This document shows positions 35,274 to 38,200 of a DNA stretch of 42,029 nt, in pieces (position 1 is the stretch's first letter; each line of letters opens with the position of its first letter). A model generated the notes under the pieces. That model was not told where the DNA came from. It saw only the letters and a list, made by a program, of their open reading frames with translations, and did not search any database. The position numbers and the translations under genes were made by a program. The stretch comes from an uncultured Zetaproteobacteria bacterium (lineage in GTDB: Bacteria; Pseudomonadota; Zetaproteobacteria; Mariprofundales; Mariprofundaceae): the NCBI GenBank assembly GCA_964387725.1, contig CAYLYU010000001.1, positions 2,671 to 44,699 on the forward strand, read 5' to 3'.

Positions 35274-38200
35274 CTAACCTCCAAACTCGAGCCAGCCCGA
35301 GCGAGTTCCGACAAAACGCTCCGAGATAAATTGCACATCGTCGGACCCTCCTATCTGAAATGACTTTTCGGGTTGGCGCGGATGGAGATTGGCAAGCAAC
35401 AGGAGCCTTTTGGCTGAATACACCGCCATGAAATCCTGTCTCGTATTCACATCAATCAGGCGTTCAAAACCGAAACGGGGCCACTCCTTTCTGATCTTTT
35501 GCAGAGTGATGACATCCTGTGTGAGCATATAATGTGCAATCTCGGACTTGAGACCAGCTGGCACGCTGCTTGATTTTCCCCATGGCTTGTTCTTGTCAAT
35601 ATATGACTGGAATTCTGTGAAAACTGTAGGCATCTCAAATATGTCAAACTTAACTTCCTGAACCCGGTTTTCCGTTTGCTGGCGAAAAGCCTGACGCAGC
35701 AGGGGAGAAAGCCACAGAACAGCAAATTCCTTGTTTCTAGATTGCGGCATATACATGGCCTGGGGCATACCTCCGCCATCGTAACCAATGGTTTCTTCCC
35801 CACCATCAACAATGTTTGCCTCGAGCCCGTCATCCTGCAGATATGCGCGCAGAATAGTTCCGAGCTTACTTAATCCCGCCTCATCAAAAACACCGTCATT
35901 GAATGATAGCAAGACATCACCCTGCGGCAACTCCATCTGCCCTGGCATCCCTCCAAAGCCACGACACTGCATGACGAGCAGGGCCTCGTCGCCGGATTCG
36001 CGTAACAAAACCTGATTAACGAGATTAAAGAGGTTTTCTTTGTTCTCGACCTTGATCAGATCCGATTTGCGATTCTGGTTGCTTTCGAAATGTGCCCCGC
36101 TGATTAGCAGTGCTCTGGCGTGCAGGCGTTCAAACAAAGATACGCCGTATTCAAAACTACTTAACTCGAAGAGTGGGCGAGGCACCTGGACAATAAAACT
36201 CTGAACCGCGCCCAGACGCAGCACATAGGTACCCCAGTAGTGTCTGTCGGACACATCTTCCCTGGCTGTAAGAACAAGGTATTGGCTATTGGTTAAGCGA
36301 TGTCGGTAACGGATTATACGATAATTAACTGCCGCTGCTGATATGGCGATGGCCCGAAGCTCCTCCAGACCGGCTTCAGTCCAGCTTTCCTTGGAAAATC
36401 CTCTGCTCGAAATATCGAGCAAAGGCGTCAAAACTTCCTGATCAAAGAATAACAGCTCTTCAACACGGGGCGGGACATATAAGTTCGTGCCTTTCTCCGC
36501 GATTTGCCCCTTACCACTCAACAACCAGTCCTGGAGATAACCATCAATGCGCTGTTCGCGAACTTCTAGCTGTAAGTCGAATTCTGACAACAGATATCTG
36601 GACATCAACTTTCGGACATCTTTTCGATTAAGCACAAGTTCGGCGAAACCGGACCTTGTTGAATCGCGCTGGATATTTTTTAAGGACGTGTTCGCCCAAT
36701 GAATATCAAAGCCGTCAATCATGTCTTTGATCAGCACCATGTTAAGATCCGGAGGTAACGTACCCTTGACCCAAAGGGCGCTCCTCAAGTCAGGCAAATC
36801 AATATCCTTCTCAATATCCCTGCGCACTCCGGCAATTCTCCGAGCCCTTTCCTGGGTATAACCTCTCACCTGCAGGACATCACGCCTTGCCAAGACTTTA
36901 TGAAAGGCATGAAACAGCGTATTGTAATTGGCAAGCACGTCGGATGCCTGATTCAGATTTGTATCCCTGGCCGCACCGGCTATAGCCAGGGCCCTGCCCT
37001 GAAGGGACTTGAACAGTAAGGCGCCTGCATTCATCGCTCCCCACTCATCAACCGGCGAAGGCACCTCAACAAGAAGGCGGCTGGGAGACTGAAGGTCGAT
37101 AACAAAAATACCCCAGCCACGTTTGAGTCCTCCTTCTTTCAGGTAAATATATCGATCTTCCAAAAGCGTGATTTGATAATCAACTCTCGACAACCGTGTA
37201 GCAGCTTCATTGAGACGTTCCTTATCACGATCCTCGGCATATCGAAGGATCGAGCGAACCCCTTCCGTGAATAAATCAATCTCCTGAGGGAGTGGGCTTT
37301 CAAAGCTATCCTGCGAACGCTGTTTATAAAGTTCAACCTGATCATCGCGAACAACCTCGGTAAGACGTTTCCCGGAGCGATCAAATACTACGGGACTTGC
37401 AACCGCTCCCGAGGGGACAGTCCACGTCCACAGGTTGGGAAGAAATGTCAGGGAAAAACCAACAGTACTTGCCACAATAACTGCAACCATAGAAGTCTGA
37501 AGTACGGTACGAGTCATCTTCACAGCTATATCCTTGTCGTACATCTTGATAGCAATCAAGGTAGAGAGGAGATAACCGAAGGCATAAAAATCTGTAACTC
37601 TTACTTCAGGGGCTACAGCCAGAAGAAGATAGCCGAGAAACATTTTGTACACAAAGCCAATATTGAAAAAGAGAAGCAGTTTTCGCCCACCTTCAATGCT
37701 TGCAGTGCGAAACATGGGAGACATTAAAATCAACTTGGCTACTAGCAAAATCACGAACGCTTCGGCAAAGGAAGCCAGGATTTTCATCGGCTGATACCAC
37801 TGCAAAGCCAGAAGCGCCGGAATCAATATACCACTGTAATCCCACCCATATCGGAGATTCATCCGTGACGCAATAAATGCGGCAACGATCAAGATGATAT
37901 ATGCCTTGGGGCCAGCCAGAATTGAGGAGGCAAGATCCTCGTATAGATAACCCAAATCGCTCAGACTCAGATTCGTGAACTCCAGGAGACCATAGCGAAC
38001 GATAAAGAAAGTCACCACTACGGGCACAACCAGCGGTGTGATACCACGAATAAAACCTGTTTTCCAAAATTGGTTTGCGATAAGAATGACGATAATCAGC
38101 CCGAGGCTGTGCAATGCATCCCGGTAATCAAACTGGATGTTATAATTATTTATCAGGTATTCACCAAATAATGGAAAAAACCAGCCGTCAAAGGTGATGC

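Follow-up and report, generated by a model that had tools for sequence, protein, structure and literature searches.

A stretch of 42,029 nucleotides from an uncultured Zetaproteobacteria bacterium of the family Mariprofundaceae (contig CAYLYU010000001.1 of assembly GCA_964387725.1, positions 2,671 to 44,699 of the forward strand; hereafter the window) carries a seven-gene cassette in which a membrane protein of 1081 amino acids is encoded close to a secreted protein of 294 amino acids. The larger protein (open reading frame 35274–38519, minus strand, as for all cassette coordinates below) joins a membrane domain of the PgsC/CapC type to two degenerate copies, M1 and M2, of the fold of the smaller, stand-alone protein (open reading frame 30947–31831). 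The latter gene lies two genes downstream and its product is an active-looking paralogue of the two modules.

Domain organisation of the 1081-residue protein

The protein begins with a tandem PgsC/CapC-like domain (residues 14–360, window 37440–38480), made of two CapC-like repeats with about 12 transmembrane helices as judged by hydropathy, and all-helical in the AlphaFold2 (AF2) model. This is followed by module M1 (residues 402–640, 36600–37316), a linker, module M2 (residues 724–951, 35667–36350) and a C-terminal alpha/beta domain (residues 952–1081, 35277–35666). Both modules were delimited with hhalign, M1 also by residue mapping, and the last domain was recognised from AF2 secondary structure, with a predicted local distance difference test score (pLDDT) of about 90. 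The full-length model has a pLDDT of 87.1 and a predicted template-modelling score (pTM) of 0.73.

The membrane domain matches Pfam PF14102 in two stretches (E=1.3e-39; 135.8 bits against a cut-off of 27), in line with the preliminary description of this DNA, where the degenerate copies had been joined to a PgsC-type domain. The CapC duplication is borne out by an internal repeat, residues 24–76 resembling residues 212–263 (E=4e-7). Since the PF14102 threshold is passed and that of the equivalog model TIGR04011 is missed (62.7 bits, under a cut-off of 96.45), the protein belongs to the PgsC/CapC family without being an equivalog of Bacillus PgsC. Databases label it either PgsC/CapC or hypothetical.

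When lysines and arginines are counted family-wide on a 12-helix model, the inside loops hold 15.3 and the outside loops 5.2. By this positive-inside rule both ends of the membrane domain are predicted to face the periplasm, and the C-terminal 720 residues would be periplasmic, which would put them together with the paralogue that is secreted there. Searches of these 720 residues against Pfam, NCBIfam, PHROGs and PADLOC returned nothing, the C-terminal alpha/beta domain itself having no match in Pfam or NCBIfam, and single-sequence and profile searches of PDB sequences with the stand-alone and the 1081-residue proteins gave nothing meaningful. Foldseek with the full-length model lists flippase- and MFS-like structures, none of them significant.

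Homology of the modules to the stand-alone protein

The likeness of the three segments had been noticed by eye, in three blocks of a region (35685–37127 on the minus strand) that corresponds to residues 465–945 of the 1081-residue frame. With single sequences, BLASTP aligns M1 with the M2 region over 130 amino acids at 30% identity (E=3e-14), and the stand-alone protein with M1 at E=1e-4 and with the whole 1081-residue protein at E=4e-5. Family profiles were built from alignments of 37 stand-alone homologues and 120 homologues of the 1081-residue protein, and their comparison with hhalign places all three segments as homologous: M1 and M2 match at E=1.2e-23 (probability 99.6%), the stand-alone family and M1 at E=1.3e-14 over 231 columns, and the stand-alone family and M2 at E=5.6e-10 over 211 columns. 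A hidden Markov model (HMM) of the stand-alone family finds 88 of 121 members of the larger family at E<1e-3, with E-values scaled to 1.84 billion sequences, and typically matches two domains per protein, at residues ~393–560 and ~720–850. Moreover, the order of secondary-structure elements in the AF2 models, HHEEEEHEHE(H)EHEH, is the same in all three copies. On these comparisons of sequence and predicted structure, M1, M2 and the stand-alone protein are confirmed as true paralogues.

That the three segments are unrelated, and alike by chance or through composition, would fit the BLASTP comparison of the stand-alone protein with M2, which is without significance for single sequences (E=0.69). 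It is refuted by profile–profile E-values between 1e-10 and 1e-23, by HMM matches that hold at the scale of the whole database and by the identical secondary-structure order, and its probability is regarded as negligible.

The modules correspond to residues ~35–281 of the stand-alone protein, and all three blocks recognised by eye reappear in the profile alignments. In the first, G99, P116 and H117 of the stand-alone protein align with G470, P487 and S488 of M1 and with G763, P780 and R781 of M2. In the second, Q186-x-H188 aligns with Q550-x-R552 and, through the M1–M2 alignment, with Q851-x-R853, the direct profile alignment of the stand-alone protein and M2 being shifted by 2 residues at this point. 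In the third, F262, H264 and E266 align with F625, E627 and V629 and with F932, V934 and W936. The length of ~180 residues first given for the module has to be revised, as its real extent is ~230–240 residues and takes in two N-terminal helices.

Loss and retention of putative active-site residues

Across the 37 homologues of the stand-alone family, 18 columns are invariant, among them H117, D121, N143, R147, D159, Q186, H188, H264, E266 and R272. In 58 genomes from several phyla, H117, D121, R147, D159, Q186, H188, H264, E266 and R272 are likewise free of substitutions. The AF2 model places these conserved residues at strand ends, as would be expected if H117, D121 and H188 formed the metal triad of a carboxypeptidase-like zinc enzyme and E266 were its catalytic glutamate.

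The equivalent positions of the modules were surveyed in 204 sequences, namely 121 family members and 83 genomes. H117 is replaced by S488 in M1 (Ala in most relatives) and by R781 in M2 (90%), H188 by R552 (92%) and R853 (100%), H264 by E627 (98%) and by V934 at a variable position, and E266 by V629 at a variable hydrophobic position and by W936 (100%). D121 is represented by E492 (94%) and E785. Family-wide the replacements are near-invariant, reading Ala-Glu-Arg-Glu in M1 and Arg-Glu-Arg-x-Trp in M2, and R853 and W936 are invariant in all of the 121 plus 83 sequences.

The exchanges read from this single sequence, of the first histidine to Ser or Arg, of the histidine in the HG motif to Arg and of the glutamate in HVEMS to Val or Trp, are hence correct and hold generally: the His/His/Glu set is gone from M1 and M2 throughout the survey and no sequence keeps both histidines. 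The accompanying statement that every catalytic residue had been lost is slightly too strong, because the acidic ligand position D121 is kept as glutamate and other residues of the site are retained, D159 as D527 (M1) and D820 (M2), Q186 as Q550 and Q851, R147 as R518 in M1 and R272 as R942 in M2. Nor do the fused copies hold an alternative complete metal site of the histidine-based zinc type, as judged from the family conservation of His and Cys; M2 is devoid of any conserved His or Cys and M1 has H540 only. A site built on carboxylates is conceivable.

The modules could still be enzymes of a metal-independent or carboxylate-based kind, for instance through E492, E627 and Q550 of M1, possibly with H540. 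These four residues are near-invariant, and the fold does host metal-free chemistries, nucleoside phosphorylases and Cys-peptidases being among the fold matches listed for the stand-alone protein. However, M2 offers no conserved His or Cys and carries the invariant Trp at the catalytic-Glu position, in M1 the counterpart of E266 is hydrophobic and variable, and searches of Pfam, NCBIfam, PDB and Foldseek turned up no family known to have a site of this kind. Residual catalysis is therefore considered very unlikely.

Selection on the modules

Conservation is concentrated at the old site. Positions conserved to at least 90% make up 4 of the 8 site positions in M1, compared with 12% of all module columns, and 7 of the 9 in M2, compared with 18%. 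Against a 94%-identical relative, the ratio of non-synonymous to synonymous substitution rates (dN/dS) is 0.09 for M1, 0.03 for M2 and 0.04 for the transmembrane domain, and the whole 1081-residue protein remains ~50% identical, and constant in length, between members of different classes and phyla. M1 and M2 are under purifying selection and are not decaying. Through their homology, their residue loss and this selection they appear to fit the definition of pseudoenzymes, catalysis by the live paralogue being itself a prediction.

The degree of constraint also bears on the idea that M1 and M2 are inert spacers, which would span the periplasm and link the inner-membrane synthase to the SPOR-domain and 1150-residue proteins of the cassette (see below), the pocket being filled for stability by a salt bridge and a Trp. 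The Arg/Glu/Arg and Trp of M2 are what would be expected if side chains had taken over from a structural metal, the charge of the modules is neutral, and the cassette does code for periplasmic proteins of great size and for a SPOR domain, which binds peptidoglycan. The low dN/dS values and the identity kept across classes and phyla nevertheless may point to more constraint than is usual for spacers, and residues on the substrate side (R518, D527/D820, Q550/Q851 and R942) are retained. A structural role of this sort is considered unlikely, and both a pure spacer and residual catalysis are less likely than the guiding and docking functions discussed below.

Identity of the stand-alone protein

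The 294-residue protein has an N-terminal signal peptide that ends in ASA, directly before a G, and its AF2 model has a pLDDT of 90.7. Its family comprises 2745 representative clusters. One 100%-identical database protein (P0001) has been called 15 residues shorter, at 279 amino acids, a start that would cut the signal peptide; a second database entry (P0002) backs the 294-residue form.

Pfam gave no match for 37 members of the family at E<=10, and the protein itself matched no model in NCBIfam, PHROG or PADLOC and no PDB sequence, profile searches included. Foldseek, with 50 matches listed per search, returned 4oko (E=2e-4) and 2odf (E=6.7e-4) for its model, with probabilities of 0.99–1.0, and also 2qj8 and Csd4. 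The matched proteins include Francisella REP34, Atu2144 of the N-formylglutamate amidohydrolase (FGase) family (PDB 2odf), a member of the aspartoacylase family and Csd4, an M14 peptidase. The E-values run from ~1e-4 to 1e-2 and the TM-scores reach only 0.36–0.49. Nucleoside phosphorylases, purine ones included, and pyrrolidone carboxyl peptidases are also among the fold matches listed, and the viral models of BFVD contributed a Zn carboxypeptidase and an FGase.

Csd4 and MpaA cut gamma-D-glutamyl bonds. The zinc amidohydrolases as a group (FGase Atu2144, the M14 members Csd4, MpaA and REP34, and PghP) resemble the stand-alone protein in their general alpha/beta fold and putatively in the His-x3-Asp...His...Glu arrangement at strand ends. 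They differ from it in that no family sequence model (M14, FGase PF05013 or PghP PF05908) matches and the TM-scores are low, and they are unlike M1 and M2, which lack the metal ligands entirely. PghP is a known zinc hydrolase of poly-gamma-glutamate (gamma-PGA) (PMC4497714), and a PghP-type identity for the stand-alone protein was considered and dropped, there being no PF05908 match and PghP not being among the 50 listed matches in either Foldseek search. What stands on the model is a remote fold similarity at the level of the superfamily. Taken with the invariant motif, it makes the protein probably a new, metal-dependent family of the carboxypeptidase-like amidohydrolase superfamily. The label 'hydrolase', like the predicted metal dependence and activity, comes down to the invariant H-x3-D...H...H-x-E motif and the remote FGase/M14 fold similarity.

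The cassette and its synthase components

The seven genes of the cassette form a close-packed run on the minus strand. At the head is a CHASE2 sensor histidine kinase (38900–41620; Pfam CHASE2, E=6.8e-19), followed by a single-domain response regulator (38529–38900; Pfam Response_reg, E=4.8e-18) and the 1081-residue gene. A 1150-residue protein with BNR/sortilin-like repeats (31818–35270; Pfam and NCBIfam) separates the latter from the stand-alone gene, after which come a 1889-residue secreted protein with a SPOR domain (25281–30950; Pfam and NCBIfam) and a 1402-residue protein with HEAT repeats (Pfam HEAT_2) and a PgsB-like ligase domain (NCBIfam TIGR04012; 21073–25281). The kinase and regulator genes overlap by 1 nucleotide, the 1150- and 294-residue genes by 14, the 294- and 1889-residue genes by 4 and the 1889- and 1402-residue genes by 1. 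Such overlapping or abutting genes suggest translational coupling.

Pfam gave only HEAT repeats for the 1402-residue protein, from which a cassette without PgsB seemed to follow; this was overturned by NCBIfam, which exposed a match to TIGR04012 (poly_gGlu_PgsB; E=6.2e-59, 199.6 bits, under a cut-off of 222.7). The PgsB-like amide-ligase domain covers residues 715–1057 (22111–23139), has the P-loop GTRGKS at residue 746 and is preceded by a predicted transmembrane helix at residues 709–727. It is 28% identical to what we take to be the PgsB sequence of B. subtilis. Giant HEAT–PgsB fusions of ~1400 residues recur in the cassettes of other taxa. The presence of this ligase domain in the operon justifies the term synthase, and by sequence homology the cassette holds both core synthase components, a PgsB-like and a PgsC-like one.

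As in the Bacillus PgsBCA(E)/CapBCADE systems, a PF14102 membrane domain and a PgsB-type ligase are thus found in one operon, and the ligase has an intact P-loop after a transmembrane helix. Whereas Bacillus PgsC is a stand-alone subunit of ~150 residues, here a tandem PgsC is fused to ~720 residues predicted to be periplasmic in a protein of 1081, and PgsB sits inside a HEAT-repeat protein of 1402. The cassette also brings in a kinase of the CHASE2 type and three large proteins of the periplasm, and the host is Gram-negative.

The SPOR domain of the 1889-residue protein (residues 647–719, 28794–29012; Pfam PF05036, E=1.2e-11) is seen by NCBIfam as an RlpA/FtsN SPOR region, the rest of the protein being unannotated. 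As SPOR domains bind peptidoglycan, it suggests a cassette that is tied to the cell wall or passes through it. The 1150-residue protein is N-terminally anchored and periplasmic. Its BNR/sortilin-like propeller of ~340 residues (residues ~394–733, 33072–34091) is an insertion in the copy of this lineage; orthologues elsewhere have ~790–830 residues, and the database protein P0273 can be aligned with the sequence on either side of the insertion but not with the inserted part. Natural fusions of the 1150-residue family with the stand-alone hydrolase-like protein occur in P0273 (1157 residues) and in locus L075 (13059–16667), a Rosetta-stone hint that the two periplasmic proteins work together.

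The remainder of the window is of a housekeeping nature, with cytochrome oxidase genes, FtsK, LolA, RNase J and an MFS transporter. A nearby respiratory cluster contains two COX1-like genes (2624–3982 and 7816–9486, minus strand), one weak and divergent (E=9e-18) and the other clear-cut (E=3e-115), with CtaA, a UbiA-family prenyltransferase, COX2 and SCO1 as neighbours. Scans of the window for tRNAs and with Rfam gave zero matches, and a reading of the locus as a defence system was ruled out, with zero PADLOC matches.

Distribution and gene order

Related loci were anchored on the alignment of the 1081-residue protein, one genome per species being scanned. Relatives were found in 372 species, which include members of the Zeta-, Gamma- and Betaproteobacteria, Desulfobacterota, Magnetococcales, Campylobacteraceae and Nitrospirota, with the nearest in the Mariprofundaceae. 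Oxidisers of sulfur and of iron, nitrifiers, methanotrophs and sulfate reducers are represented, as is a Legionella species, and the carriers in culture include Desulfobacter latus AcRS2 and Legionella yabuuchiae OA1-2. More than 1337 homologous clusters of the 1081-residue protein exist, all of ~1080 residues and of constant architecture. Literature searches on the cassette (PgsC/CapC in Gram-negatives, Zetaproteobacteria, CHASE2 and structure) found nothing relevant.

Almost every sampled locus of sufficient length retains the seven-gene order. In 65 of 83 loci the kinase gene precedes the big gene, and the gene for the PgsB-like domain is co-located in the sampled loci that are long enough to reach it. 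A 1.4-Mb metagenomic contig (L002, 1–9958 and 17083–21981) has a permuted order, with the genes for an 1852-residue protein and the HEAT–PgsB protein upstream, and STAS and anti-sigma-like HATPase genes inserted ahead of the kinase; its stand-alone gene is followed by one for a 1632-residue protein with PEP-CTERM (weak), MAM and TIG matches. The stand-alone gene is present in 49 of the 51 loci of sufficient length. The two informative loci without it come from a Methylococcaceae genome (L015), where the homologues of the 1150- and 1889-residue proteins directly adjoin, and from Thiomargarita nelsonii (L023), where no other cassette gene was found beside the big gene.

This co-inheritance of active and dead paralogues bears on the possibility that M1 and M2 are docking or regulatory pseudoenzymes, which bind the live paralogue, or the 1150-residue protein, and so recruit or gate its activity at the synthase. 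Dead paralogues often partner live relatives, and oligomers are common among enzymes with this general fold, in keeping with the purine nucleoside phosphorylases and pyrrolidone carboxyl peptidases among the listed fold matches. The modules are not basic, and the cassette proteins seem to be physically coupled, as the fusions in P0273 and L075 indicate. Against docking, the most conserved positions of M1 and M2 are old active-site positions and form no obvious surface interface, and L015 and L023 keep the big protein without an adjacent stand-alone gene. As an explanation, docking of the live paralogue in the manner of EnvC fits the data about equally well and is a strong competitor; it is regarded as possible, if on balance improbable.

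Proposed role of the modules

The function that we favour, at roughly even chances, is that the 1081-residue protein is the membrane subunit of a poly-amino-acid synthase of the PgsB/PgsC type, whose modules hold or guide an emerging gamma-polyglutamate-like polymer at the channel exit. The tandem CapC-like domain would partner the PgsB-like ligase domain of the 1402-residue protein at the cytoplasmic face, and the C-terminal 720 residues, with their two tandem pseudoenzyme modules, would lie in the periplasm. As the modules appear to share gene ancestry with a secreted, apparently active zinc-hydrolase-like protein, a copy of the enzyme may have been fused to the membrane subunit, may have lost its metal site once, through the His188-to-Arg change common to both modules, and may then have been duplicated in tandem to give M1 and M2. 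It is the shared change that suggests this order of loss before duplication, since three clades without an outgroup give no root. The old active-site pocket would have been rebuilt as Ala/Glu/Arg/Glu in M1 and Arg/Glu/Arg/Trp in M2. The modules would grip the polyanionic chain as it leaves the channel, without cutting it, much as a hydrolase-derived lectin does, and would steer it to the other periplasmic proteins of the cassette, while the free, active paralogue might trim or release it.

Binding or guiding of the polymer is judged the most likely function of M1 and M2. It is made plausible by the predicted periplasmic location at the channel exit and by the conserved, remodelled pocket with its arginines, and is favoured by the retention in M1 of R518, the equivalent of the invariant R147. 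We know of no established exit route for poly-gamma-glutamate, nor of an established function for PgsC, even in Bacillus. The fusion of a PgsC-type domain to a large periplasmic apparatus of dead hydrolase copies points to PgsC as a conduit.

Several observations weigh against this proposal. The mean net charge is +0.8 for M1 and -1.2 for M2, compared with +4.9 for the stand-alone family and +11 for the copy in this window. As the modules are about neutral and not basic overall, they bear no bulk electrostatic signature of polyanion binding, and the comparison of net charge did not support such binding. The Arg/Glu replacements could do no more than occupy the former metal site with a salt bridge inside the module, and the pocket could be closed off by Trp936, which is invariant. 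The known fusions join the hydrolase to the 1150-residue family and not to the 1081-residue protein, and Foldseek with the full-length model gives only weak peptidase-fold matches (LapA at E=0.027 and MpaA at E=1.9). Unlike in the Bacillus synthase, no cassette protein matches PgsA/CapA (PGA_cap) at the Pfam thresholds used, and PgsE was not searched for; as to PgsA, a paper on recombinant B. subtilis reports, in its title, that the protein is dispensable there (PMC6029982). Both synthase domains fall under the NCBIfam equivalog cut-offs, so that the polymer may not be gamma-PGA, the identity to which the homologies would point.

The cassette as a whole could be a trans-envelope machine not recognised before, with which Gram-negative bacteria would synthesise a polyamide and export it, be it gamma-PGA or some new poly-amino-acid. 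Enzyme-derived, lectin-like modules on the channel would serve as a clamp or ratchet that does not cut the nascent chain, and the live paralogue would release or trim the product. This wider proposal is put forward tentatively, at rather less than even chances.

Comparison with other systems

A parallel in function may be drawn with bacterial cellulose synthase. Two tandem repeats of polymer-binding domains in BcsB guide the nascent chain, and the operon also codes for BcsZ, a separate hydrolase of the periplasm. In the BcsA–BcsB structure attributed to Morgan et al. in 2013, BcsB is reportedly a membrane-anchored periplasmic subunit at the exit of the cellulose synthase channel. M1 and M2 at a channel exit, together with a live paralogue, would work in a similar way. 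In contrast to the modules, BcsB has an unrelated fold, works on a polysaccharide in place of a polyamide, and exists as a polypeptide of its own, whose binding domains do not derive from the hydrolase of the operon.

Degenerate hydrolases with a retained function are also known. The degenerate LytM factors EnvC and NlpD control cell-wall amidases, and chitinase-like proteins are hydrolase-derived lectins. Like M1 and M2, these are conserved hydrolase folds without metal or catalytic residues, which bind a partner enzyme or the former substrate. They differ in belonging to other folds and pathways, and in that the dead domain is not carried on a polymer synthase.

Significance

Whilst pseudoenzymes and PgsBC synthases are both known, the present architecture and the co-inherited set of live and dead paralogues are new, and provide a clean case of an enzyme/pseudoenzyme pair inherited together in one operon. 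The residues R552, R781, R853 and W936 give the hypothesis a testable form. The arrangement probably marks an unstudied polymer-export machine of Gram-negative species and, with relatives in 372 species, an anionic exopolymer system so far overlooked could be ecologically widespread.

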